A stretch of 56,839 nucleotides of DNA, taken from NCBI GenBank assembly GCA_017463565.1, contig JAFTOZ010000004.1:1-56839 (forward strand), written 5' to 3'. The translations under genes and the position numbers were made by a program. Below are positions 1 through 53,353 of this stretch, in pieces; position 1 is the first letter of the stretch; every line of letters begins with the position of its first letter. The notes beneath the pieces were generated by a model, which saw only the letters and a list, made by a program, of their open reading frames with translations, searched no databases and was not told where the DNA came from. The stretch is from Clostridia bacterium. GTDB taxonomy: Bacteria; Bacillota; Clostridia; Christensenellales; CAG-1252.

Positions 1-134
1 CGAGACTCGCAGAGAAAAGTGTGAGGAACTGATTACGGCCATGGTAAACAAGCCATTGTAGGCGTAGGGCTTTGAAATGGCGTATCGAAATATGCTACAA
101 TAGGAATAATCGAACCAAGAAAAGAGGGTGGAAG

Positions 135-671
135 ATGAAATTGGTAATGATTATAGGTGCCGGTGCGGTTGGCAAAATGACCGTGGGGCAGGAACTTGCG
201 AAAATCACAAATCTGCGGTTGTTTCACAACCATATGATGATCGAGCCGGTGCTCGAGATTTTTGGCAGGTTCAAAGGCGATACCATTCTGAAACTGCGTG
301 AGGTGATTTTTGAGGATTTTATCGCCGACGCGCAAGAGGGCATGATCCACACCTTTATGTGGGCGTTTGATATGCAGTCGGATTGGGAGTACGTAGAAAA
401 CCTTGCGAAAAAGTTTGACGAGGTGTATTGCGTGGAGTTGATTGCCTCGCAGGAGGTGCGCCTTGGGCGAAACAAATCGGAAAACAGACTGGCAAACAAA
501 GCCTCCAAGCGAGACGTAGAGGCCTCCAACGGCCGCCTTTTGAACGAGGACAGATATCGGTTGGTGAGCAACGAGGGGGAAGTCCCCTTTGCGAACTACT
601 TGCGAATCAACAACGAGAATATATCTGCAGAAGAAGCGGCAAAGCTCATCAAGGAGAGATTTGGTCTGTAG
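135..671 (+). CDS. P-loop NTPase / small-molecule-kinase-like ATP-binding protein
   Basis: Part of ORF 72..671. Walker A motif GAGAVGKMTVG follows directly after the internal Met at 135, which is preceded by AGAGGGTGG. The 21 upstream codons look like a read-through extension. Confidence 0.6.
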   Translation: MKLVMIIGAGAVGKMTVGQELAKITNLRLFHNHMMIEPVLEIFGRFKGDTILKLREVIFEDFIADAQEGMIHTFMWAFDMQSDWEYVENLAKKFDEVYCVELIASQEVRLGRNKSENRLANKASKRDVEASNGRLLNEDRYRLVSNEGEVPFANYLRINNENISAEEAAKLIKERFGL

Positions 672-705
672 GGGCACAAAAGTGGGCCCCTTGGGGTAGT
701 GGGGA

Positions 706-1671
706 ATGATTCGCGCGTTTTTGTTAGACAAATACGGCATATCCGCATTGGATATCAGGCAGATGACTACGGGTGCCGGCGGCACTACGTATCGGGTTTG
801 CACGAGCGAGAAATCCTACGTGCTGAAGCTCGCCAAGGAGGACGCGATGAATCACCCAAGACTAGAGCCTACCGTATGTGCGGTGTTGAGAAGCAATGGA
901 ATCAACACCCTCTGCTTTGTGCCAAGCAAGGACGGCGAATATAGCACGCTACTGGATGGATATATTGCCAACCTGTATGAATACGTAGAAGGAGATACGG
1001 TCGCGCACAATTCCCTGTCGGCGGAAAAAGTCGACGAGTGTGCTGCGCTCCTTGCCAAAATCAACGTAGCGTTGCAGAATATGGATTTGCCGATGGGTCT
1101 GTCGCAGGGCTTCTTTGATTTTATGACCCCCGACCGCGCCCTGCAATCTTATTTGCAGTCTTTGGAAAAAGCAAGGGAAATCAAGGACGCGGAAATTATC
1201 CGCAGCATAGAAAACAGAATCGAATTGTTGCCGTACATACACGGGTGGCAGTTTGATTGCGCCAAACTCACCTTTTGCAATTCTCACGGCGACTATACCA
1301 ACAACCAACTGATTTTGCAGGGGGAGTGTGTTCATATCATCGACTTTACCTGTTGTTGCCGGCAACCCGTTGTGTGGGAACTGACGAGGTTTTTCTTTCA
1401 CGCAGACAAAACCGCAAAGGACGGCGCATTTGACGAAAAGCGGTATAGGGAGTATCTGCGCAACTACACCAGTATAGTACGGTTAACCGACTACGATTTA
1501 GATAACGCATATAAACTCTACTTCTATCAAATATTGGTGTGCGACTACTATAGCCAATATCTGGCAGAAAAGGATGATATCAAGAAAAAAGACTATCTCA
1601 CCCAAGCCAATTTTGCATCAAAAATTCTCAATGCCAACAGCGAGTTGATTAAAAATGCACAGAAAGGCTAA
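706..1671 (+). CDS. APH/choline-kinase-family phosphotransferase
   Basis: 321-aa ORF with catalytic-loop motif HGDYTNNQ followed by IIDF (metal-binding Asp), the signature of aminoglycoside-phosphotransferase-like kinases. Confidence 0.65.
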   Translation: MIRAFLLDKYGISALDIRQMTTGAGGTTYRVCTSEKSYVLKLAKEDAMNHPRLEPTVCAVLRSNGINTLCFVPSKDGEYSTLLDGYIANLYEYVEGDTVAHNSLSAEKVDECAALLAKINVALQNMDLPMGLSQGFFDFMTPDRALQSYLQSLEKAREIKDAEIIRSIENRIELLPYIHGWQFDCAKLTFCNSHGDYTNNQLILQGECVHIIDFTCCCRQPVVWELTRFFFHADKTAKDGAFDEKRYREYLRNYTSIVRLTDYDLDNAYKLYFYQILVCDYYSQYLAEKDDIKKKDYLTQANFASKILNANSELIKNAQKG

Positions 1672-1677
1672 TTGGGA

Positions 1678-1705
1678 TTGCAAGGATAGCGAATTTTGGT
1701 ATAAT
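1678..1705 (+). promoter_or_regulatory. sigma-A-type promoter with extended -10 in front of the TIR gene
   Basis: TTGCAA (1678..1683), 16-nt spacer, TGgTATAAT (TATAAT at 1700..1705). It lies 24 nt upstream of the ATG at 1729 and starts just after the APH stop codon. Confidence 0.55.
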
Positions 1706-1728
1706 GAGAGTATAAAAAGGAGCAAACA

Positions 1729-3324
1729 ATGGACGTATTTGTGATAGCAGAACAAGATCCACACCAGATTGTCAAAAAGATGGCAGAGGTGGGCATTCAT
1801 TCGGTGTACGAGTCCAGCGTGAAGGCAAGCGGCGTCACCTGGTTTGAGGAAGAAGGGATATATATTCGCCTTTCCAAGTTGGTGGTGGCTCTGGTGGACG
1901 AGGAACTGTTGGCGGACGAGTGCGACGCCTATGCGCTCAATTACGCCAAAAATTGCCGCTTATCCGTCTATGCGCTCATGCAAGGGGCTACGGACGAGGT
2001 GGAGGCGGCATTTTCCTCACGCTATCCCGAGTGTGAGGTTTTCTCCGACCCCAACAAACTGCTCAGCGCTATCATGGAATTCCAAATCACCCACCGCACC
2101 GGCTCGGGTCTTTCTGTCAAGGCAGATATGTATTTCCGTGCCGCCCTCTACGACGAGGCGCTGTCTGTGTGCAAGGAATATTTAGAGTACGCCACCGAGG
2201 AATTGCAACATTTGTCGGGATTGCCTGCCGTACAAATCAAAAAGGACGTTTGCACGATCCTCGAGATGGTAGCCTGTATTTACTTCATCCGCCGAGATTA
2301 CGAAAAGGTAGAAACGGCGCTCCGCAAGCAAATTGCCGTGGTAGAGGATGAAAGGGTGATATGGGGTACGGACCACCTGTTGTATGCACGCCATCTGTTG
2401 CTCACTTTCTACACCGCCTACTATCCGGACCGCGCCAAAGAAGAGGAACTGCGAGGACTGGTAGAGGGCAAGCAATGCTTTGGGTTCGACGAACAAGAGG
2501 CCCAACGGCAAACGGACAAAATGTTGCAGCGTGTCCTGCTCTATTTTGAGCGTTGCACCCGCCTGTTGCACCGCTACGAAGAGGAGCAATCGGACAAGCG
2601 CGAAATCCCCACCGACAATATCCACAAACTGATTGCCGAGCATATCGAAACGAGCATTTTACTCTTCAACGAGCTTGCCAAGCAGGGTGTACCCCTTGGT
2701 TTTGGCGAGTGTCTGTCCACCGGCTACGAGCGGTTGATGGAATATTGCCGTATCATCGGCGAGCGCAAGCTGGCGGTGCGCTGTCTGGACGCTATCGCCG
2801 CCAACGTCAAGGTGGGGCATATGATGCAGGCCAAAGAGAATGAGGAAGCGATGCTCAACCTCAAATGCATCAAGGCATATCTTGGCCAGACCCAACCCGA
2901 TTCGGGCAACTACGACGCCTTTATCTCCCACCGCGCCGCCGACACCGAAATGGCAATGACGGTCTATACCCTGTTGCGAGCAAAAGGCAAGGAAACCTTC
3001 CTGGACCGTGTGAGCCTACCCGTTTTGGGGGATTCGGAATATCGCAATTCCATTTTGGAGGCCATCGACAATAGCGCACACCTGATATTGGTCTCCTCGG
3101 GCGTGGACTTTTTCGACTCCAAGTGGGTCAAAGAGGAATGCAATATGTTCTGCGACGAAAAGAGAGAGGGGCGCAAGAGCGGAAACCTGGTGATGGTATT
3201 CCCACGCTCCGTCTGCAACGAGATTTTTGCCGCCAACAAGCGAAACCTGCCTATACAACTGCGCTCTTTCGAAATCATAGCCCTCGAGGATATCGAAAAG
3301 TACCTGTTGCAGTATATCGTCTAG
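1729..3324 (+). CDS. TIR-domain protein with a long helical (TPR-like?) N-terminal region
   Basis: RBS AAAAAGGAG upstream. The C-terminal ~135 aa carry YDAFISHRAAD (TIR beta-A strand) and SKWVKEEC (SxWxxxE motif carrying the catalytic Glu in NADase TIRs). I recognise no motif in the N-terminal ~390 aa. Confidence 0.75.
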   Translation: MDVFVIAEQDPHQIVKKMAEVGIHSVYESSVKASGVTWFEEEGIYIRLSKLVVALVDEELLADECDAYALNYAKNCRLSVYALMQGATDEVEAAFSSRYPECEVFSDPNKLLSAIMEFQITHRTGSGLSVKADMYFRAALYDEALSVCKEYLEYATEELQHLSGLPAVQIKKDVCTILEMVACIYFIRRDYEKVETALRKQIAVVEDERVIWGTDHLLYARHLLLTFYTAYYPDRAKEEELRGLVEGKQCFGFDEQEAQRQTDKMLQRVLLYFERCTRLLHRYEEEQSDKREIPTDNIHKLIAEHIETSILLFNELAKQGVPLGFGECLSTGYERLMEYCRIIGERKLAVRCLDAIAANVKVGHMMQAKENEEAMLNLKCIKAYLGQTQPDSGNYDAFISHRAADTEMAMTVYTLLRAKGKETFLDRVSLPVLGDSEYRNSILEAIDNSAHLILVSSGVDFFDSKWVKEECNMFCDEKREGRKSGNLVMVFPRSVCNEIFAANKRNLPIQLRSFEIIALEDIEKYLLQYIV

Positions 3325-3341
3325 GCGCAAGAGCGGATACG

Positions 3342-3368
3342 AAAGCAGTCTTCGGACTGCTTTTTTGT
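3342..3368 (+). terminator. rho-independent terminator after the TIR gene
   Basis: AAAGCAGTC-TTCG-GACTGCTTT stem-loop followed by a T-run. Confidence 0.8.
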
Positions 3369-3596
3369 TTACACAGAGCGCAAAACTCGTGCAAAAGCCA
3401 AGTTGTATGCAAACAGAATGCCACGCAAGGTAGGCGTTTGGCTCTTGCTCCTTTGCCCAAAGCAGACCTTTGCAACAGGAAAACCCCTTGCGCTCGCCCC
3501 TCTTGCAGGGGCAGAAAGGGGAGGGGATTGCCCCAATAGGGGCAATGATCTTCTGTAAAAAATCGAGAAAAGAGGGGGTTTTGCGGAAATAGGGTA

Positions 3597-3624
3597 TTGA
3601 CTATTTGGGCGGAATAGGTATAAT
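3597..3624 (+). promoter_or_regulatory. sigma-A-type promoter of the membrane-protein pair
   Basis: TTGACT (3597..3602), 16-nt spacer, TATAAT (3619..3624), about 55 nt upstream of the ATG at 3680. Confidence 0.55.
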
Positions 3625-3679
3625 TAAAATATACCTAAATGCAACAAAGGTTGCGGAAAACTATGTCGAGGAGAACTTC

Positions 3680-5368
3680 ATGAAACCCAAACCCTTTCTC
3701 AAACTGCAAAGAAAGAAATCCATGTTTGGCGTGCTGAAGGCGATCGCATACTGTGCAGGTTTCCCCTTACTGCTCCTTTTCGTGATTGCAGGTAGCGTGC
3801 AGTTTATGCACGAGTACGTGTTCGAAAAGACGTGGTATTTGGGAATCGGAATTGCTTTGCTCCCGTGGCTGTTGACGGCCATTCTGCAGATTGTGTTCAA
3901 CCGATTCAGCTCGTCGCAATATATCAAGACCTTGGTCGTGGCGATCGTGGCGGTGGCGTGCGTATTGGGCACGGCCGGCATTTTGGATTTGCACGGCGCG
4001 GCTGTCATCGAGGAAGTCAAGGCAGAGTACGAGGATACCGCCGTGGACATTCCTACCATCGACTACCTCAAGGGACACTATTTGACCACAACCAAATACT
4101 TCCCCAGTGAGTTGGACGGTTTCTACGATGATCTCGACGAGTTCTGCATGATCTACAACGTGGGCACCCGTATTGATATCCGCAATGGCGAAAATAGCGA
4201 CGGCACCCCCTACGTGGTGGACAAAAAGACAGGTCTTCCCATGAACCCCAACGGCCTGGTGAGCGAGTGCTTCGTCTACGACGCACGCTTTGCCATCGAC
4301 GTGATTTTGGACTATATCGAGAGCGAGGAATATCTGCTTTCGCACAAAATCACCAGGACCGAGGGTGGCGAGGACGTTGCTCTGACCAGTGAGGAAATCT
4401 ACCGTGAGTTGATTGCTTTGGTCGAGGCAAGCGACGCCTATACCACCTATCAAACCTCGGAGGAATATTTGGCGGCATACAGCAAGGAAAAGGACGAGAA
4501 CGGCGACTACGTTGGCTCTGCCTACCGTGTGATGTTGGACCTTGCCGACCTCGACGATATGTTGCCTGCTTTGCTTCGCCACGTGGGCGTTGCGCTGCTG
4601 AACAACGATCTGATCGGTTCGCTCAGTATGATCACCAGTATGATCAAGTTGGACGAACTGTTTGAACAAGCATCCCTGCCCGACGCTACCGTGGAAAGCT
4701 TGCTGACCTATATCCAAGATACCTTCTGGCCCCAAGTGCGCTCTTTGGTGGGCGGTCTGTTGCCTGCCGAGACCTTGGCACAAATCGAGGGTATCATTGC
4801 TGGGCTGCAAGTGAGCCAGTTGGAGGAACTGTTGGAAGAGTTGACCTACTACTATTCGCCTGCGGTGTTGCCCTCCTTTGCTTTCATCGAGCCCGCCAAT
4901 ATCGCAACGCCCGGTGTGGACGGCTCCTACGAGTTGACGGTAGCCGACACCACCCTGACCTTTGCCGACGAGGCGGAGTTCTCTGCTTTCTCGGCAGAGC
5001 TCAAGCGCTATGCATACGCTCGCTACTACGCCAAGATCAACGGCGCCTATATCGGCTCGGTGTTGATTCCCAACAACGATGTAGGTATCGGCACTCTGTT
5101 GAATAGTGAGGGTCGTATCGGTATGGTTACCCTCAACGACAACGGTTTCGACAACAGCAAGGCTTGGACGCGCGACGAACTGTTGCAACTCAAGGCAGAG
5201 TTGTCCTACGTGCCCCAGTTGTTCCCCTTGTTGACGGCTCGCCGCTTCCTCTATACCTTTGCGGGTATGGTAGCGCTGAGCATCATCCTCTTCTATCAAT
5301 TTGGACGCCGCCAAGATGAGGTCATCGAGGAAATGTGCGCCCTCAAAGGAGGTGCTTGCCATGAGTAA
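3680..5368 (+). CDS. large membrane protein of unknown function (N-terminal TM bundle, acidic ectodomain, C-terminal TM)
   Basis: Part of ORF 3605..5368. Start placed at the Met at 3680, behind GAGGAG. Hydrophobic segments near both termini; no catalytic motif recognised. Confidence 0.7.
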   Translation: MKPKPFLKLQRKKSMFGVLKAIAYCAGFPLLLLFVIAGSVQFMHEYVFEKTWYLGIGIALLPWLLTAILQIVFNRFSSSQYIKTLVVAIVAVACVLGTAGILDLHGAAVIEEVKAEYEDTAVDIPTIDYLKGHYLTTTKYFPSELDGFYDDLDEFCMIYNVGTRIDIRNGENSDGTPYVVDKKTGLPMNPNGLVSECFVYDARFAIDVILDYIESEEYLLSHKITRTEGGEDVALTSEEIYRELIALVEASDAYTTYQTSEEYLAAYSKEKDENGDYVGSAYRVMLDLADLDDMLPALLRHVGVALLNNDLIGSLSMITSMIKLDELFEQASLPDATVESLLTYIQDTFWPQVRSLVGGLLPAETLAQIEGIIAGLQVSQLEELLEELTYYYSPAVLPSFAFIEPANIATPGVDGSYELTVADTTLTFADEAEFSAFSAELKRYAYARYYAKINGAYIGSVLIPNNDVGIGTLLNSEGRIGMVTLNDNGFDNSKAWTRDELLQLKAELSYVPQLFPLLTARRFLYTFAGMVALSIILFYQFGRRQDEVIEEMCALKGGACHE

Positions 5369-6932
5369 GAAACAAAAAATCGCCGCAACGATTGCAAAAG
5401 TTGCCCTGCACGTGGTCGGTTTCCCCGTGCTGTTCCTCGTGGTGTTGCTCATCAATCTCGAGGTCATCAAGGGCGGTATCAGCTACGGTCTGCCTGTGTT
5501 CGTCAGCTTGATCGTCACCGCCGTCATGGCTATCATTTTCTACGCCACCTATTTCTTGGTGCGTACCAAAAAGAGCCGTTCTATTCGCAACCAACACGTC
5601 ATCATCGCCATCGTAGCCCTGTGTTCTTTGATGGGTTTGTGGATGGTGGTAGACGCATTTCTGCCCGAGCCTCTGGAGACCGCCACTTCTTCCACCCTGC
5701 GTTGGGAGGATCTGTCGGATAACTGGGCGGCACGTGCCGAGGTCAACGAGGACTTGTTGGAGGACTATATCACCCTCAACTATACCCTGGGCAGATTGGA
5801 GGGCGAGACCCTCGATACCTACCTCAAAGAGGGCAATAGCAACGATCAAGTGGCAGAGCTGTTGAAGCAAGACTTCAGCGCAATCGACCAAAACGGCTAC
5901 GCTACCTTTGTGGGTCCCAGTATCGACTATGCCCAAATGGACCGTATGACAATCCCCGTGCTGTTGCACCTGTTGTTGGACGATCGTGACGACCAAAAGG
6001 CCAGCACCGCCGACGGTCTCAGCCTGGAGATCAAGATGCCCGTCTACCGTGATTGGAACGGTGACGAGGTGCATATCGTACGTGCCTACGATCCCGATGC
6101 AGGCAACGGCTATCTGTTTGTGGACGAGGACTTCAACAAGACATCCAGCACTTCCGAGCTGTATATCGTCAAACCCAACACCGAATCCACCAAGACCCCT
6201 GCTACCGATTGGTTGGCAGAGAAGCGCGTGAATATGGGCCCCGTGGACGGCAAGGTCAACGAGGAAATCGAGACGATGGCTTGCGCTACCGCCGAGGAAG
6301 CGTTGTCCTATCTGACCGCCACCTATCCCGACGCCGTGGATAACTACTATATCTGTACCTACGAGCCTCGCCTGATTCGTTGGACGGTGCTGGATATGAT
6401 GGGTGATCCCATGGCAATGGGTCTGCTTGGCCCCGACATGATGGAGTTGGATATCGACGCCGCTATTGCCGGCGCAACCGGTGGCATGATCAACTTGGGT
6501 ATGGGTACCGTTGGTGATATGTTGGATAGCGAGCTGGTGCAAGACACCCTCATCATTGCCGGCGAAATGATTGGTAGCGACGATCTGTTGGGCGCTCCCA
6601 TCTACATTTCTTTCGACAAATCCACCGGTTCCCTGGTGCTGACTCCCAGCAATAGCGCACGCGGTGTGTTGGGCTATATGCAAATGGGTTGGTTGAACAG
6701 TAACGGTCTGCTGTACGTGATCGTCAGTTTGTTCTCCTGCCGTACCGTGTTCTATATCTACGCGCCTATCATGGCTCTGATCGCTATCGCTCTGGGTTGG
6801 ATCCGCGAAAAGGAAGCGGCGCTTTCGGGCGGAGAGCCCACCCCCAAGCGTTCTTTGCGCAAGAAGAAAGGGGAGCAGGCAGAGGAAGTGGCAGAGACCC
6901 CTGCCGAGGAAGAAGTTCTTTTGGAGGACTAA
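5361..6932 (+). CDS. large membrane protein of unknown function, same architecture as the upstream gene
   Basis: Part of ORF 5301..6932. Start placed at the Met at 5361, behind AAAGGAGG. Overlaps the upstream stop by 8 nt. N-terminal TM segments, acidic ectodomain, C-terminal TM and a charged tail. Confidence 0.7.
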   Translation: MSKKQKIAATIAKVALHVVGFPVLFLVVLLINLEVIKGGISYGLPVFVSLIVTAVMAIIFYATYFLVRTKKSRSIRNQHVIIAIVALCSLMGLWMVVDAFLPEPLETATSSTLRWEDLSDNWAARAEVNEDLLEDYITLNYTLGRLEGETLDTYLKEGNSNDQVAELLKQDFSAIDQNGYATFVGPSIDYAQMDRMTIPVLLHLLLDDRDDQKASTADGLSLEIKMPVYRDWNGDEVHIVRAYDPDAGNGYLFVDEDFNKTSSTSELYIVKPNTESTKTPATDWLAEKRVNMGPVDGKVNEEIETMACATAEEALSYLTATYPDAVDNYYICTYEPRLIRWTVLDMMGDPMAMGLLGPDMMELDIDAAIAGATGGMINLGMGTVGDMLDSELVQDTLIIAGEMIGSDDLLGAPIYISFDKSTGSLVLTPSNSARGVLGYMQMGWLNSNGLLYVIVSLFSCRTVFYIYAPIMALIAIALGWIREKEAALSGGEPTPKRSLRKKKGEQAEEVAETPAEEEVLLED

Positions 6933-47128: not shown

Positions 47129-47181
47129 TCGAATCGGCCAAAACAAACCGAATAGAGCAAAAGCAAATCGAACAAAAACCA

Positions 47182-47216
47182 AAGAGGTTGGCTCCTACCA
47201 ACCTCTTTTTTGTTTT
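47182..47216 (+). terminator. rho-independent terminator after lysS
   Basis: AAGAGGTTGG-loop-CCAACCTCTT (10-bp stem) followed by a T-run. Confidence 0.85.
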
Positions 47217-47233
47217 CCCCCCTCACATACCCC

Positions 47234-47257
47234 CACAAAACACCCCTATTGTCAAAC
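47234..47257 (+). repeat. left copy of the 24-bp direct repeat flanking the rhs cassette
   Basis: CACAAAACACCCCTATTGTCAAAC, identical to 52146..52169. Confidence 0.9.
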
Positions 47258-47277
47258 CGTATCAATACGTGTATAAT
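47249..47277 (+). promoter_or_regulatory. candidate promoter of the rhs gene
   Basis: TTGTCA (47249..47254, inside the direct repeat), 17-nt spacer, TATAAT (47272..47277). Confidence 0.5.
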
Positions 47278-47339
47278 ATATTTGTACCCACCCGCGTGTG
47301 GCGCGAGGGGTACTAATAATATTTGAGGAGGAAAAGAAG

Positions 47340-50300
47340 ATGAGCGAAAACTTTAATAAGAAGTGTAATGCAGGAAGTATAGTGTTGGCATCTCCATATT
47401 TTGAATACGTGTATAGTTTACCACTCGTTTCTTTTGGCGACGCAAAAGGTTCGGTAGAGCTAGGCATCGTATACAACTCCCAATTGGCTTCGTCCAATCT
47501 CTTTAACATAGCCAACGGCTTCAAACTGAATCTACAAAAGAAGCTAATTTTCAACAACGGCAAAGTTTCCCATATCATAGACTCCAACGGATTGCAAATC
47601 GCGTGTAACGAAGCAACGAACGGTGCAAACAACTACGGCCAACGCGCCTACGCCCTGAACGATGAGTCCCACCGTATTTTGCGCCAAACGGAAGACGGCT
47701 ACGAACTGGAATATCCCGACTATAGCAAAGAGCTGTTCAATGCTAACGGCGATATCGTCAGCAGCTACGACAAATATGGCGTTCAGATTTTAGATTTTGG
47801 CTATTCGACTGGTACCACGCCTGTCCTGACGACAATTACATACAGACCTGCATTAGGTGCGACATACAAAAAGCTAACTCTATCCTACAATGAGAACGAC
47901 TTCATAAGCATTGCATATTCTGCGCTAAAAGAAGACGGCACGGATTACTTTTCATTGATTGCAGTGGTTTCATTTTTTACTGATGGTGTTAGAATTTATC
48001 ATTATTCCAATGTTGAGTATCTCATTTATAAGGAAGGTTCCGAATTTATAGCAACTGCCTCGACTGGCATTAACAATCTATCGGTGGATGTTTCGGAAGT
48101 AAAGTGTACCGAAACCGAAAACAAGTATGTTGTTCAGAGCTTGGAATATGGAAAAGTCAAAGATTCCGTCACCTATGAAGCACGGCAAATGACAACCGAC
48201 GGCACAGAACTCCTTGTTTTGGACCAAACGGACTTTCACGGTGTTATCACGCGTGTGCAGTACAAGGACCACATGCCGACCTACTCATACGAAATGCTGG
48301 CTGATGAAAGCGCTATGTTCAACGCCCAGGAAAAGTATATCGGTACGGTACAGGTCCAAGAAAAGCGCGGTGTAAGCGGCGCCGTGATCCACGGTTTGGG
48401 GCGTTCCTTCATATGTACACTTCCAACGATGGATATGCGTGTTCGAATATTCCCAGACGACACGCCGAGTTCGGTCTATACCGGAGAGGCGGTTTTGACC
48501 GGCTGGATACGCAGCTCAGAGGTAACTAATTATACACTCTACGTCAAAGAGGTACCGCACCAAATACAGATAGATTGTATTAATACCTGGCTATTCTTTG
48601 CGATACCGTATTTTAACGACGAGCGCTACATTGATTTGCGGCGTACTTTCTCTAACCCTGTGGAATTATGCGGAACGGCGGTATATATGCTAGACCGTCA
48701 TTTGCGTAGGGATACCGCAAGCGTTGTGAACTTTGATAGCATGGTTGGATACAATTTTGACGATGTTACGTTCATGAATGAAATCGACGGCCAACCGGAT
48801 GTATCGGGTTGCGTGGCTAGCTTCGAGGATATCCAACGGTATTTTATCGCTCGCAAAAAGGGACGTACAAACGAGTTTTACTATAACAACGGTCGTAGCC
48901 TCATCACCAATGCCGACACAATTAAGATACGTGTTGTTTTTGTCGATAACGAAGGGTCGACACACTATCAATACGCCCTGCTTTCGCAGTTTTCCGAGAT
49001 AGCAAAATCAACCTCGTTCCAGACGGACAATCGAACTGTGCGCTATATCTTCAATTACGCCCAACATTTTATGGTGGAGGAGCGACCCATAGGTACCACG
49101 CAAAAAACGCTTGTCTATCACTACGATTCCTATCTTGATCTGGTGAGCGCAATATCTCGCACCCAGACACTAGGCGCACCGATAGAAATACCCTTGGAGT
49201 CCTACACAAGAAACAGCCTGGGTTTGGTAACGAGTCACACGCAAGGGGCAGATATAGTACGAAGTTATACTTACGATAACAACTGCACTTGCATACAGTA
49301 CGAAACCGACGAATTTGGCGCAGTCACAAACTACACAACGGATGCCGTATGGGGGCAGATTGTTGCGGCAGATGTCTCTACGCTCGCGAAAAGTAATGCT
49401 GAGTACACCGCCGACGGAAAGGATTTGGAGGTGGCTACTTTTGGCGTAGGTACTAATACCACTTCTAACACCGTAACCTACGCAGATGGAAACGTATCGA
49501 CTGTGAAGTCCGGCGGCATCACATATGGCTTTGGATATACCGACAACGACCTGACAGCCATCAGCAAAAACGGAGTTACACTCAAGAGTATATCCTATGA
49601 CACCAACAACTACCGTACTGCCACAGTAACCAGTCCAACCTCGGCAAACGTAAGCTACGTCAAAACGCGTACGGTAGATAACTATGGTCGAGAGTTACTG
49701 GTAGCAGGTTACCGCGAAAACACCTACGCCCTCTATCCAAGTTTTGATTCAACCGGCGCTCACGTTAACCTGGGGGACGGCAAAGGGAGCAACCGTCTTA
49801 GCCGTACTAAGGATTTGACAAACAACAGAGAAACGTTGTTTGGCACGCTAAATGCTACCCAACAGAAAACCGTGACAATGAGTGGCACAACCACGGTTGA
49901 CGCAACCGTTGTCACGCAAGACGTAAGCGGTAGACCAACTTCACGTGTATATGCACGCGGTGACGCTCTCTCTATTCAGGAATCTATGACCTACGCCACA
50001 GGCGTACAGACGTGGGAGACGGATTCGCGTATTTTATCGCATCAGTATAAGATAGGCGAGCAGGACGTTGTATCAACAGCCATATCCTACGACGACCTCA
50101 AGCGTCCCACCCAAAAGACGCATACCGTAAACAGCATACCCTTCCGCAAGACGTTAACCTACAACCGAAGCAGGGTTCGTTCCGTCATAGACAGCAAGGA
50201 TACCTCCACCGTAGCCCACACCTCGTACGTCTACAATTCCCTGGGTAGGATATTCAGCGAAACTGAGAACGTATCCGGCAAAACTACTACCTATAAGTAT

Positions 50301-51725
50301 GATATACTGGGCCGTTTGACACGCGAAAACAATCAGGCACTCAACAAGACGTATCGGTATACCTACGACGCCGCAGGCAACGTGACCCAAAAGCAAACGT
50401 ACGCCTATACGACAGTGGTGACCCTGCCCGAAACGGCAGAGACCACAGAAACATTTGCGTACGATTCTGTCCACCCCGACAGACTGTCTGCCTACAACGG
50501 TACCTCGCTGACCTATGACCAACAGGGTTGCCCCACTTCACTCAACGGCAAGACTCTCACTTGGACCAAAGGAAAACTTACCCGAGTTTCTTCTACCAAC
50601 GCACAGGGTACAACGACGTATAGCTTTACCTACGATGGATACGGTCGCCGAGTCAATAAGGCCTATAACTTTGTACGCTCCTTTAGTGCGCCGTTAGTAC
50701 CCGACGCTGTTCGTTCCGAGTCCACAGACTTTGTCTATGACCACGCCGGTAGATTAGTGCAGGAGACCAAGACGCGTACCTTGTTCAACAACGCGTCTTC
50801 ACAATATGTGGTAACCTACCTCTATGATGAATTCTCTATTGTTGGTATGAGCTACAATGGAGTGGACTACTACTTCCAACGCAACCTGCAGGGGGACGTA
50901 GTGGGCGTGTATGACAATACCGGTACCAAAGTCGTCACCTTCCAATACGATGCGTACGGAAACTGCACTGCCTCCGGAGGTTCACTTCTGAACTTCTGCC
51001 ATATCCGCTACCGCGGATACTATTATGATGCAGAAACGGAACTCTACTGGGTAACCACACGGTACTATTCCCCTGCACTCTGCCGTTGGATTTCACCTGA
51101 CTCAATCGAATATTTAGATCCAGAAAGAATTAACGGGTTGAATTTATATGCGTACTGTGGGAATGATCCAGTTAATTATGTTGACCCATCAGGTAATTTA
51201 CCATTTTTCATATTAACAGCAATTATTGGTGCTGTTATTGGAGTGGGAATTACAGCTGCTGTAGACTATATTCCTGATAAAGAATTTAATTTACACTGGG
51301 GTTGGTATGTAGGAGCAGGAGCCTTGGGAGCGGCAATTGGTGCTGGTATTGGAATGGCAGTATCATATTATGCTACAGGAAGTATTGCTTCATCCACAGG
51401 AAACGTATTTGCAAGTCTATTCAAAAGCACTTCACTATATCGTTCGGTCGGTCCCGACGAATTGGCTGATTTAAAAGCAATTGGTAAGTTTAGGCAAGGT
51501 CCAAATAGTATGGAAGGTAAATTCTTTGCAAATTCAAAAAAAGGAGCGATGAAATGGGGAGAAAGTTTTAGCCAATCGAGTTATATTAAAATTAGAGTTC
51601 CTAAGAGTTCGTTATCAAATGTATCAGTTAACGCAATGAAGCATTTAGATGCTATTGATGATGCGTTTTACTTCTCTGATTTAGGATATTTAAATTCAAT
51701 TGCTGGAAAAATCTGGTTCTTGTAG
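47340..51725 (+). CDS. RHS/YD-repeat polymorphic toxin
   Basis: Part of ORF 47298..51725. Start placed at Met 47340, behind GAGGAGGAAAAG. Many YD repeats (YTYDAAGNVTQ, YKYDILGRLTRE, FTYDGYGRRVNK, FVYDHAGRLVQE, FQYDAYGN). Core end is RYYSPALCRWISPD...YAYCGNDPVNYVDPSG, followed by a variable ~175-aa tip. Confidence 0.9.
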   Translation: MSENFNKKCNAGSIVLASPYFEYVYSLPLVSFGDAKGSVELGIVYNSQLASSNLFNIANGFKLNLQKKLIFNNGKVSHIIDSNGLQIACNEATNGANNYGQRAYALNDESHRILRQTEDGYELEYPDYSKELFNANGDIVSSYDKYGVQILDFGYSTGTTPVLTTITYRPALGATYKKLTLSYNENDFISIAYSALKEDGTDYFSLIAVVSFFTDGVRIYHYSNVEYLIYKEGSEFIATASTGINNLSVDVSEVKCTETENKYVVQSLEYGKVKDSVTYEARQMTTDGTELLVLDQTDFHGVITRVQYKDHMPTYSYEMLADESAMFNAQEKYIGTVQVQEKRGVSGAVIHGLGRSFICTLPTMDMRVRIFPDDTPSSVYTGEAVLTGWIRSSEVTNYTLYVKEVPHQIQIDCINTWLFFAIPYFNDERYIDLRRTFSNPVELCGTAVYMLDRHLRRDTASVVNFDSMVGYNFDDVTFMNEIDGQPDVSGCVASFEDIQRYFIARKKGRTNEFYYNNGRSLITNADTIKIRVVFVDNEGSTHYQYALLSQFSEIAKSTSFQTDNRTVRYIFNYAQHFMVEERPIGTTQKTLVYHYDSYLDLVSAISRTQTLGAPIEIPLESYTRNSLGLVTSHTQGADIVRSYTYDNNCTCIQYETDEFGAVTNYTTDAVWGQIVAADVSTLAKSNAEYTADGKDLEVATFGVGTNTTSNTVTYADGNVSTVKSGGITYGFGYTDNDLTAISKNGVTLKSISYDTNNYRTATVTSPTSANVSYVKTRTVDNYGRELLVAGYRENTYALYPSFDSTGAHVNLGDGKGSNRLSRTKDLTNNRETLFGTLNATQQKTVTMSGTTTVDATVVTQDVSGRPTSRVYARGDALSIQESMTYATGVQTWETDSRILSHQYKIGEQDVVSTAISYDDLKRPTQKTHTVNSIPFRKTLTYNRSRVRSVIDSKDTSTVAHTSYVYNSLGRIFSETENVSGKTTTYKYDILGRLTRENNQALNKTYRYTYDAAGNVTQKQTYAYTTVVTLPETAETTETFAYDSVHPDRLSAYNGTSLTYDQQGCPTSLNGKTLTWTKGKLTRVSSTNAQGTTTYSFTYDGYGRRVNKAYNFVRSFSAPLVPDAVRSESTDFVYDHAGRLVQETKTRTLFNNASSQYVVTYLYDEFSIVGMSYNGVDYYFQRNLQGDVVGVYDNTGTKVVTFQYDAYGNCTASGGSLLNFCHIRYRGYYYDAETELYWVTTRYYSPALCRWISPDSIEYLDPERINGLNLYAYCGNDPVNYVDPSGNLPFFILTAIIGAVIGVGITAAVDYIPDKEFNLHWGWYVGAGALGAAIGAGIGMAVSYYATGSIASSTGNVFASLFKSTSLYRSVGPDELADLKAIGKFRQGPNSMEGKFFANSKKGAMKWGESFSQSSYIKIRVPKSSLSNVSVNAMKHLDAIDDAFYFSDLGYLNSIAGKIWFL

Positions 51726-51737
51726 GAGGCAATACAA

Positions 51738-52028
51738 ATGAATTATATTGCAGAAATTAAATGGCTAAAACCAGAAGAGGGTGGTAGAGAAACGGAAGCT
51801 CCCTTTAATAGTGATAAATATGGACCACAAATAAGGTTTGATGGTCTTAAGGGATCATGGAGCTTAATTGTTTGTAATTACCAAAAACTAGGTGCGTTTA
51901 GAACATTAGCTAAAGTTCATTATCTAAACAAAATAGATGCACCTAATAACTTGAAAATAGGTTTAGAGTTTGATCTGTATGAAGGTGTTAAAAAGGTTGC
52001 TCATGGAGAAATTATAGACATAATTTAA
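51738..52028 (+). CDS. candidate cognate immunity protein, EF-Tu domain-III-like beta-barrel
   Basis: 96-aa ORF, 12 nt after the rhs stop, behind AGGAGG. AT-rich like the toxin tip. LKPEEGGRETEAPF...YGPQIRF and GLEFDLYEGVKKVAHGEI resemble EF-Tu domain III. Confidence 0.7.
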   Translation: MNYIAEIKWLKPEEGGRETEAPFNSDKYGPQIRFDGLKGSWSLIVCNYQKLGAFRTLAKVHYLNKIDAPNNLKIGLEFDLYEGVKKVAHGEIIDII

Positions 52029-52100
52029 ATATCACAGACATGCAAGAGTGTAACTATCTAAACAGGAAGTTGCATATCTTCCCCTCACTCAAACCAAACA

Positions 52101-52129
52101 AAAACCGACTGCAACCAGTCGGTTTTTTC
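52101..52129 (+). terminator. rho-independent terminator after the immunity gene
   Basis: CCGACT-GCAACC-AGTCGG followed by T6. Confidence 0.7.
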
Positions 52130-52145
52130 TTGGCTCGGTAGAAGG

Positions 52146-52169
52146 CACAAAACACCCCTATTGTCAAAC
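52146..52169 (+). repeat. right copy of the 24-bp direct repeat flanking the rhs cassette
   Basis: CACAAAACACCCCTATTGTCAAAC, identical to 47234..47257. Confidence 0.9.
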
Positions 52170-52243
52170 TACACAAAAAAGGGTTTAAAAAATGAAAAAC
52201 AAAATTAAAATATCAGATTTTAGTAACCGCACATACTGCGGAC

Positions 52244-52273
52244 AATAAAAAAGACCTCGGTTGCCCGAGGTCT
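52244..52273 (-). terminator. rho-independent terminator of gap
   Basis: AGACCTCGG-TTGC-CCGAGGTCT stem, with a T-run on the minus strand. Confidence 0.8.
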
Positions 52274-52288
52274 TTTGTTTTACTTGTC

Positions 52289-53353
52289 TTACAGAAGTTC
52301 TGCAAAGTGCTTAATGGTACGCACCATTTGGCTGGTGTAGCTGTTCTCGTTGTCGTACCAGCTGACTACCTGCACTTGATAGGTGTCGTCGTCGATCTTA
52401 GCAACCATAGTTTGGGTAGCATCGAACAAGGAACCGTAGGTCATGCCAACCACGTCGGAAGAAACGATTTGGTCGGTGTTGTAGCCAAAGCTCTCGTTGC
52501 TAGCAGCCTTCATAGCAGCGTTGATTCCGTCCACGGTCACGTTTTGACCCTTCACCACAGCGATCAGGATGGTGGTGGAACCGGTAGCGGTGGGCACACG
52601 TTGAGCAGCGCCGATCAACTTGCCGTTCAACTCGGGGATAACCAGACCGATAGCCTTAGCAGCGCCGGTGGAGTTGGGAACGATGTTCATAGCGCCGGCT
52701 CTGGAACGACGCAGATCGCCCTTACGTTGGGGACCGTCCAGGATCATTTGGTCACCGGTGTATGCGTGCACGGTGGTCATGATACCGCTTTGGATGGGAG
52801 CGTAGTCGTTGAGGGCCTTAGCCATGGGAGCCAAGCAGTTGGTGGTGCAAGAAGCGGCCGAAATGATGTTGTCCTCAGAGGTGAGGATGTCGTGGTTCAC
52901 GTTGAACACTACGGTGGGCAGGTCGTTGCCAGCGGGAGCGGAGATAACAACCTTCTTAGCGCCAGCGTCGATGTGAGCTTGAGCCTTAGCCTTGCTGGTA
53001 TAGAAACCGGTGCACTCCAGCACAACGTCTACCTTCAGCTTCTTCCAGGGCAGTTCCTTAGCAGCAGCCTTAGCGTAGATGGTGATCTCTTGACCGTCCA
53101 CGATGATAGCGCCGGAGGTAACCACAGTCTTGCCGTCCTCGGCCAAGATGGGATCCTTGTAGTCCACGGTGTGACCGCTGCGAACGTAGTTGCCTTGCAT
53201 GGTATCATACTTCAACAGGTGAGCCAGCATTTTGGGGCTGGTGAGGTCGTTGATGGCGACTACCTTGTAGCCTTTCGCACCAAACATTTGTCTGAAAGCC
53301 AGACGACCGATACGACCGAAACCGTTGATTGCAACTCTTACATTTCTTGCCAT
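52289..53353 (-). CDS. gap: type I glyceraldehyde-3-phosphate dehydrogenase
   Basis: [12 protein letters not shown]-binding motif and the active site SCTTNCLAP. Confidence 0.93.

Follow-up and report, generated by a model that had tools for sequence, protein, structure and literature searches.

A free-standing homologue of EF-Tu domain III encoded behind an ADP-ribosyltransferase-fold Rhs toxin tip: a putative immunity protein and a possible decoy of the toxin's target

Why would the gene directly behind a polymorphic toxin encode what looks like a single domain of a translation factor? The question is raised by contig JAFTOZ010000004.1 of a Clostridia bacterium (GCA_017463565.1), of which the whole stretch of 56,839 nt was analyzed and is called the window here. 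Near its end, an Rhs/YD-repeat toxin gene is followed by a gene for a protein of 96 amino acids, which a preliminary description of the locus took for a free-standing domain III of EF-Tu and for an immunity protein that imitates the target of the toxin. We find that the small protein is homologous to EF-Tu domain III, that the C-terminal tip of the toxin is modeled with the fold of an ADP-ribosyltransferase (ART), and that genes for the two are strictly paired across genomes. These findings make EF-Tu a plausible partner of the toxin, and the small protein a plausible decoy of it.

The small protein and its relation to EF-Tu

The 96-amino acid open reading frame (ORF) translates exactly as first described and starts 12 nt after the TAG codon of the toxin (Table 1). 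As a single sequence, its product has no match in Pfam, in the PDB (phmmer), or in PADLOC, and against NCBIfam it returns only two EF-Tu models (E = 0.018 and 0.032), both aligned end to end with EF-Tu 305–395. A word-indexed protein search retrieved relatives of at least 60% identity only. A profile of 13 close homologues aligned with domain III of E. coli EF-Tu (hhalign E = 0.012, 33% identity over 79 columns), and had no match among PDB sequences.

An exhaustive profile search recovered 173 cluster representatives at E ≤ 1e-3, most of them stand-alone proteins of about 100 amino acids, and 97 of these make up the family alignment (A2), in which mean column identity is 23%. P0088 and P0105 matched in 3 to 6 separate stretches and are repeat proteins, probably of the HAMP and Ig types, and were rejected as artefacts of summed repeat scores; three other long proteins matching in 3 to 6 stretches (P0132, P0140, and P0161) were assumed to be repeat artefacts by their likeness to these two.

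It is at the level of this family that the relationship becomes significant. The 97 members align with EF-Tu domain III over 87 columns with a probability of 96.6% and E = 5.8e-10 (hhalign), where the EF-Tu side consists of six sequences, four of which have motifs that agree with those of two PDB-derived sequences. Searched against all PDB sequences, the family profile has 28 distinct matches, all of them bacterial or mitochondrial EF-Tu (best E = 7.8e-4), and 26 of the 28 span the whole of domain III. A match to the Pfam model GTP_EFTU_D3 (PF03143), which had been suggested as a check, is absent for the single sequence and present for the family, 8 of the 97 members matching the model directly (best E = 8.7e-6). 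The expected structural match is found as well. Specifically, an AlphaFold2 model built from a shallow alignment is an all-beta barrel of six strands, of moderate confidence (predicted local distance difference test, pLDDT, 67.6), and EF-Tu accounts for every one of its 50 best Foldseek matches among PDB structures (query TM-score, TMq, 0.51–0.57; E of about 1e-3 to 1e-2), with no immunity protein of any kind among them.

Because eEF1A, SelB, and IF2-gamma are absent among the sequence matches of the family, its source looks like bacterial EF-Tu itself; because the 96-amino acid polypeptide has neither a G domain nor a domain II, it is a homologue of EF-Tu domain III and not an EF-Tu. As such, the description of the protein as a free-standing homologue of this domain is well supported, with significance reached by the family and the single sequence remaining marginal. 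The two share the same beta-barrel and, in order, the motifs EGGR...P, Y-x-P, and G-x-x-F-x-[LI]-x-EG-x-[KR]-x-V-[AG]-x-G. The three motif strings listed in the preliminary description keep their order, with no indels but a 3-residue insertion in the loop past the GGR motif and gaps in the variable middle. Among other differences from domain III of EF-Tu, the 96-amino acid protein is free-standing, and its gene belongs to a toxin cassette whose base composition is foreign.

Which residues have been kept bears on what the barrel may do. Near-invariant among the 97 members are W9, G15, G16, R17, P22, Y28, W41, S42, A68, and P69 in the first part of the protein and L72, G75, F78, L80, E82, G83, V87, A88, and G90 in the second, and position 85 is Lys or Arg in 80 members. 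Beneath many of these positions lie G316, G317, R318, P321, Y326, G371, F374, I376, E378, G379, R381, V383, and G386 of EF-Tu (equivalences from the family alignments, with E. coli numbering by our own count); G15, G16, R17, E82, G83, K/R85, and G90 correspond to G316, G317, R318, E378, G379, R381, and G386, and Q31 of the window protein aligns with Q329 (Thermus Q341). W9, W41-S42, and A68-P69 are near-invariant residues specific to the family. G316, Q329, A375, and E378 are kirromycin-resistance positions that line the interface of EF-Tu domains 1 and 3, and T382, in the same hairpin, is the site phosphorylated by Doc. Assigned from alignment and literature, the residues shared with EF-Tu appear to extend beyond the hydrophobic core to a face of domain III that is known to be functional. 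E378 (Thermus E390) is one of three residues that contact and read the tRNA T-stem (PMC3239215).

Other residues that are invariant in EF-Tu have been exchanged. R377 is replaced by Tyr or Phe in 83 of the 97 members, H319 by Lys or Arg, and G384 by Ala, while T382 has become variable. These positions are candidates either for an acceptor residue of the toxin or for changes that raise the affinity for it.

The domain III-like domain also stands at the C-terminus of larger proteins, of about 410 amino acids (P0025, L053, L069, L111, and L136) or of about 260–280 (P0036, P0038, P0050, L041, and L118). These longer proteins carry two N-terminal transmembrane helices and an uncharacterized middle domain, and no ART tip is detectable anywhere in their loci. 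Some other function is conceivable for them, as is a role in immunity in a multi-domain or membrane-anchored form.

The toxin tip and its pairing with the domain III-like gene

The tip, i.e. the last 97 residues of the toxin, has no match in Pfam, NCBIfam, or PADLOC. An alignment-based search yielded 43 relatives, and the family alignment (A4) holds 37 sequences. Invariant in it are the Lys and the second Phe of M-E-G-K-F-F-A, and seven further positions are conserved at ≥90%, including the Arg of LYR, the Glu at +6 from it, and the Leu-Asp of L-D-x-I-G-P-A-x-Y. The AlphaFold2 model of the tip (pLDDT 87.9; predicted TM-score, pTM, 0.78) alternates strands and helices, and places the LYR Arg on strand 1, the Glu six residues later on helix 1, and M-E-G-K-F-F-A on strand 2. 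All leading Foldseek matches belong to the ART superfamily, namely RhsP2, Tpt1/KptA, TreTu, cholera toxin, PARPs, TreX, MbcT, and DarT, with RhsP2 the best (TMq 0.62) and TreTu at 0.52–0.57. Judged by its model, the tip is a minimal domain of ART fold whose active site looks unorthodox: it has neither an S-T-S nor an E-x-E motif, and candidates for catalytic residues are found in E-G-K-F-F (strand 2) and in the L-D that precedes strand 5. The CdiA-CT tRNases, Tse6, and Doc, which the preliminary description cited, are not its closest relatives, since the tip has an ART fold and they are BECR RNases, an NADase, and a Fic kinase. The possibility that the tip is a BECR-like RNase dependent on EF-Tu, as SRLase1 is, was also considered and ruled out by the ART fold and by the lack of a conserved His.

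The closest characterized system is TreTu-TriTu, an ART toxin of the main Rhs protein of Salmonella Typhimurium and its immunity protein (PDB 7ZHL/7ZHM), in which TreTu ADP-ribosylates EF-Tu (PMC9825190). The modified residue is D21 in the G domain, TreTu is thought to anchor on helix D, and its residues R6 and E12 are both essential; TriTu consists of a five-stranded sheet and two helices and forms a lid that traps NAD+ (PMC9825190). TreTu and our tip are alike in being Rhs-delivered ART folds of about 100–115 amino acids with an active site that is, or in the tip seems to be, unorthodox and with an Arg on strand 1 followed by a Glu at +6. By contrast, their sequence similarity is marginal, and H31 and W68 of TreTu are not evidently conserved in the tip. 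The immunity proteins differ in kind, sheet and helices in TriTu against an all-beta barrel like EF-Tu domain III, and a TriTu-like immunity protein is ruled out for the 96-amino acid protein on fold.

In sequence searches, the tip profile retrieved only 7ZHL and 7ZHM (TreTu) from the PDB, both weakly (hmmsearch E = 0.62 and 0.89). hhalign gives a probability of 78% and P = 1.8e-5 on a matched fragment chosen after the fact, and the conserved Arg and Glu of the tip align with R6 and E12 of TreTu at the same spacing. A narrower tip profile (A5) returned only spurious PDB matches (e.g. ICOS) of similar strength, so the sequence link between the tip and TreTu is suggestive only. RhsP2, of the RhsP2-RhsI2 pair of P. 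aeruginosa (PDB 7RT7), is likewise an Rhs-delivered ART; it differs from the tip in sequence (8% identity) and ADP-ribosylates structured RNAs.

Three relatives of the tip (P0201, P0202, and P0205) share its N-terminal half (LYRSVGPDELADxKxTGKF) and the preceding transmembrane segment, and have a different C-terminal half (...EAKQFGLSLDET...RLDxTxVD...), so that they may form a divergent subfamily or reflect recombination inside the toxin domain.

The pairing of the two genes is highly consistent, from whichever side it is approached. Three loci found through the immunity gene (L003, 60% identity; L002, 44%; L006, 49%) each have a homologous tip upstream, and the gene of a remote family member (P0100) shares 4 nt with the end of a preceding ORF whose product closes with ...LDGIGPAY.... 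Conversely, a search of genomes from the toxin side, with the narrower tip alignment, found a domain III-like ORF directly downstream in 9 of 9 loci, one of which has two cassettes; these loci come from metagenome-assembled genomes of Erysipelotrichaceae, Bacillales, Clostridia, Eubacteriales, and Acutalibacteraceae. Two distant tips (33–35% identity) are also followed by domain III-like ORFs with ...LYEGGR... motifs, one in a VgrG-PAAR-DUF4123 island and the other as a stand-alone pair between glycosyl-hydrolase genes on a contig of high G+C content (GC).

A scan of metagenomes, made with a degenerate DNA pattern derived only from the immunity motif F-E-L-[YF]-E-G-x-[KR]-x-V-A-x-G, yielded 120 stretches, of which 109 encode full domain III-like domains. 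An ART tip lies 0–44 nt upstream of 66 of these on the same strand (in one case at 97 nt). Nine of the 109 lack upstream sequence and 8 are C-terminal in longer proteins, leaving 92 that are assessable; 26 have no detectable tip, at least 4 of them being tip remnants or second tandem copies, and the remainder look like orphan immunity genes. No alternative toxin family was found upstream of the domain III-like genes in the loci examined. A survey of whether homologues of the small protein always follow the same tip had been suggested as a check; they do so in 66 of the 92 assessable cases, and in 26 no tip is detectable.

The scaffolds that deliver the tips vary, and include Rhs proteins, an 1818-amino acid non-Rhs protein, ORFs of about 115 amino acids, a cargo locus of a type VI secretion system (T6SS), and stand-alone pairs, and some of the paired genes overlap or are translationally coupled. 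A partner that stays constant across delivery systems is what is expected of a cognate immunity gene that travels with its toxin domain. Judged by this genomic behavior, and in line with the role first proposed for it, the 96-amino acid protein is most probably the cognate immunity protein of the upstream tip, a conclusion we regard as well supported.

Several loci show further arrangements. In L008 (positions 1–4676; GCA_025352585.1), a stand-alone tip of 107 amino acids ends a string of VgrG, PAAR, FHA-DUF4123, and DUF6972 genes and is followed by its domain III-like partner, which suggests that the tip family also serves as T6SS cargo, here in a Gram-negative genome. Domain III-like domains are duplicated in tandem in P0046, P0033, and P0087, and adjacent ORFs of this kind occur in L087 and L089. 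L014 holds two tip-immunity cassettes (1025–2527 and 5344–6614) and an extra, degenerate domain III-like ORF, an arrangement typical of orphan-cassette arrays.

EF-Tu as the partner of the toxin, and other explanations

How would a copy of EF-Tu domain III protect against an ART toxin? In the mechanism that we propose, EF-Tu would be either a substrate that the tip ADP-ribosylates or a cofactor that it cannot do without, and the tip would have evolved to recognize it by the domain III face on which the GGR loop and R-E-G-G-R hairpin lie. Inside producer cells, the same face would be offered by the immunity protein, which would bind the toxin more tightly than EF-Tu does, with at least one residue that is invariant in EF-Tu replaced (R377 by Tyr or Phe, H319 by Lys or Arg, G384 by Ala), and the toxin would be sequestered on this pseudo-target with its substrate site blocked. 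We infer the binding, the neutralization, the interface, and the partnership with EF-Tu, and taken as a whole we lean toward this decoy account, by no great measure.

Two considerations lead to it. That a fragment of tuf was recruited at all is explained most simply if the fragment was able to bind the toxin beforehand, which would make EF-Tu the substrate or cofactor of the toxin. The residues of the EF-Tu face have, moreover, been retained in a barrel that lacks domain I and has no known or evident tRNA partner, as if they were selected by something that recognizes EF-Tu as well, most simply the toxin itself. The link to EF-Tu is strengthened by the ART fold of the tip and its weak match to TreTu, itself an Rhs toxin that modifies EF-Tu. 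A decoy mechanism with EF-Tu as target or cofactor would be the most economical explanation, and one that these data strengthen.

Extended to all the loci, it would describe a widespread family, as yet without a name, in which minimal ART toxins use domain III to attack EF-Tu, either ADP-ribosylating it near the GGR/R-E-G-G-R face or using it as a cofactor, and whose immunity proteins are pseudo-target decoys made from tuf fragments. We put this broader version forward tentatively, as one with somewhat less than an even chance of being right. R377 would be the obvious candidate acceptor, since no other EF-Tu-invariant residue of the motif is consistently exchanged for Tyr or Phe in the immunity family.

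Other bacterial toxins involve EF-Tu. The abstracts and sections of their publications describe the CdiA-CT tRNases of NC101 and EC869, SRLase1, Tse6, and Serratia Rhs2 as toxins of polymorphic systems that bind EF-Tu as a cofactor or an aid to delivery, and so show EF-Tu to be a recurrent partner of interbacterial toxins; SRLase1 is modeled there at the interface of EF-Tu domains II and III, where it competes with aminoacyl-tRNA. As described in the same texts, these EF-Tu-dependent toxins are BECR or BECR-like RNases, an NADase, or an HNH DNase, whereas our tip has an ART fold, and SRLase1 has a BECR-like fold with conserved Arg, Asp, and two His residues, whereas the tip has no conserved His. 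None of their immunity proteins is described as EF-Tu-like in those abstracts and sections. Doc, the toxin of phd-doc, modifies domain III of EF-Tu and thereby inactivates the factor; it is a kinase of the Fic fold, unlike the ART tip, and is neutralized by the unrelated antitoxin Phd and not by a copy of its target. It phosphorylates T382 in the GGRTVGAG hairpin, the same one that is conserved in the immunity family.

Several observations weigh against a decoy that copies EF-Tu. The residue that TreTu modifies, D21, belongs to domain I, and the fold of TriTu, its immunity protein, is not that of the protein here, so relatedness to TreTu alone does not implicate domain III. The relatedness is itself weak in sequence, given the hmmsearch E of 0.62, the post-hoc fragment behind the hhalign P of 1.8e-5, and the spurious matches of the narrower profile. 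ART toxins of similar fold target RNA (RhsP2, TreThr, and Tre23), and no structure matches the tip better than RhsP2. Some of the residues shared with EF-Tu, i.e. turn glycines, Pro, and the aromatic core, may be kept for folding alone; the model of the immunity protein is only moderately confident (pLDDT 67.6); and about a quarter of the assessable domain III-like genes have no detectable tip upstream.

Much of this would also fit another explanation, in which a tuf fragment was taken up merely as a small beta-barrel that plugs the ART active site, the real target lying elsewhere (tRNA, rRNA, or FtsZ) and EF-Tu being uninvolved. The RNA-targeting RhsP2, the statistical weakness of the TreTu link, and the possibly structural role of several shared Gly, Pro, and aromatic residues speak for it, as does the fact that known ART immunity proteins (TriTu and RhsFI) occlude the active site with unrelated folds. 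We nevertheless think it the less likely of the two, as it leaves the recruitment of a fragment of EF-Tu, of all proteins, unexplained, and as the charged surface equivalents of R318 and E378 (and of R381 as Lys or Arg) are near-invariant despite a column identity of about 23%, whereas the interfaces of immunity proteins normally diversify fast.

The protein could instead bind the substrate of the toxin, for example the tRNA T-arm or the surface of EF-Tu domain I against which domain III normally packs, and not the toxin. Such shielding would make sense of the retained residues, which presumably correspond to EF-Tu positions that contact domain I. Some of them match positions that contact the tRNA T-stem (PMC3239215). 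We consider it very improbable all the same: tRNA and EF-Tu are among the most abundant molecules of the cell, so that a small accessory protein could hardly cover them stoichiometrically, and one-to-one pairing with a single toxin family, in coupled or overlapping genes, is the signature of direct binding between toxin and immunity protein.

Similarly, we give little credence to a protein with no role in immunity, whether a chaperone, an adaptor, an activating subunit that stands in for EF-Tu, or an unrelated small translation-associated protein that lies downstream by chance. Some toxins do need EF-Tu for activity or delivery, as the published abstracts and sections on SRLase1, CdiA-CT, and Rhs2 describe. 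Yet a toxin that acts in the cytoplasm needs an immunity gene, the domain III-like gene is its only conserved partner, and there is no other small ORF between the toxin gene and the terminator hairpin; in addition, orphan copies without a toxin and tandem copies are typical of immunity genes and not of chaperones.

Systems in which an Rhs toxin ends in an ART tip and is followed by its immunity gene are already known. By contrast, the literature searched contains no EF-Tu domain III-like immunity protein or antitoxin and no prior description of this tip, which we take to be a previously undescribed ART-fold toxin domain. EF-Tu is nowhere mentioned in a catalogue of polymorphic toxin systems from 2012, and Pfam, NCBIfam, and PADLOC have no model for the tip or for the domain III-like partner family.

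If the decoy account is right, this would be the first immunity family of polymorphic toxins to derive from the target of its own toxin, and would indicate that immunity proteins can evolve by copying a target domain. It would also offer a new and simple rule for predicting the targets of thousands of uncharacterized tips, namely what their immunity proteins resemble. A new family of ART toxins would be defined, and EF-Tu, itself a target of antibiotics, would gain a further site of vulnerability. The arms race would be constrained, as a toxin that escaped the decoy would lose its target, and this could explain the unusual conservation of the immunity family. Even if that account fails, a free-standing and unannotated EF-Tu domain III family that is strictly coupled to one toxin family is worth naming.

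Layout of the locus

The toxin has the layout of a polymorphic toxin, i.e. YD/RHS repeats, a core that ends in a DPxG-type motif, and a variable C-terminal tip, with profile matches to RHS_repeat (E = 6.4e-11) and to YD_repeat and Rhs_assc_core (residues 1217–1299, E = 6.8e-22). Homologous tips in other loci start after motifs resembling DPVNYVDPSGN. The Gly/Ala-rich helix pair that precedes the toxin domain is probably a segment for membrane insertion or translocation, as judged from its composition; it is kept together with the tip in P0163, L003, and P0205, and in Pfam it gave only weak membrane-protein noise. The coordinates of the features are collected in Table 1.

Table 1. Features of the toxin-immunity locus, in positions of the window
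Feature	Position	Strand	Remarks
Sigma-70-like promoter candidate, TTGTCA-17-TATAAT	47249..47277	+	11/12 matches; consensus match only; upstream of the rhs gene, just past the lysS terminator hairpin
Rhs/YD-repeat polymorphic toxin gene	47298..51725	+	1475 amino acids; ORF from GTG at 47298, TAG stop 51723-51725
Rhs core end, DPVNYVDPSGN, residues 1290-1300	51165..51197	+	Usual place of the Rhs C-terminal autocleavage motif; marks the boundary of shell and swappable tip
Two hydrophobic, Gly/Ala-rich predicted helices, residues 1301-1322 and 1334-1359	51198..51374	+	Between Rhs core and toxin domain
Toxin tip, minimal ART-fold domain (predicted), residues 1379-1475	51432..51722	+	AlphaFold2 model, family alignment
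GGAGG ribosome-binding site of the immunity gene	51725..51729	+	Begins on the final base of the toxin stop codon
Free-standing EF-Tu domain III homologue of 96 amino acids, putative cognate immunity protein	51738..52028	+	Own ATG, own ribosome-binding site
E-E-G-G-R-E loop, residues 13-18	51774..51791	+	Equivalent to E. coli EF-Tu D314-H319; G15, G16, R17 near-invariant
G-L-E-F-D-L-Y-E-G-V-K-K-V-A-H-G, residues 75-90	51960..52007	+	Equivalent to EF-Tu G371-G386 (GLRFAIREGGRTVGAG); E82, G83, A88, G90 near-invariant
GC-rich hairpin with flanking A and T runs	52100..52127		About 70 nt past the immunity stop; hairpin prediction

Base composition sets the cassette apart. GC is 34–40% across the tip and the small gene (positions 51000–52200), against about 50% in the Rhs body, about 55% in the flanking housekeeping genes greA and lysS, and 54–60% when lysS and the downstream genes are taken. 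Such a drop is what a swapped toxin-immunity cassette usually shows, and indicates that the pair was acquired separately from the Rhs scaffold.

The signals around the genes fit an operon. Both genes lie on the same strand, and the 12-nt spacer between them contains the GGAGG. The rhs gene likely starts in reality at the ATG at 47340 (MSENFNKK), an N-terminus that it has in common with the fragment P0168, and the hairpin past the immunity gene is likely the terminator of the toxin-immunity operon. Promoter-like sites in the region are not more numerous than expected from shuffled sequence. The toxin and immunity ORFs share a reading frame, with TAG and four codons between them, such that read-through of the stop would fuse both proteins; the shared frame is probably a coincidence.

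Strong bidirectional terminator-like hairpins with 12-bp stems and flanking A/T runs are found at 47181–47208, after lysS, and at 52249–52276, the latter between the toxin operon and a convergent gene (52289–53353, minus strand). Two short proteins resemble pieces of the locus joined together. In P0168 (150 amino acids), the exact N-terminus of the window Rhs protein (MSENFNKK...ALNDES) is joined straight to the last 40 or so residues of the tip, and in P0169 (91 amino acids) a different Rhs fragment is joined to the same tip end; both look like derivatives of the locus that arose by deletion or recombination.

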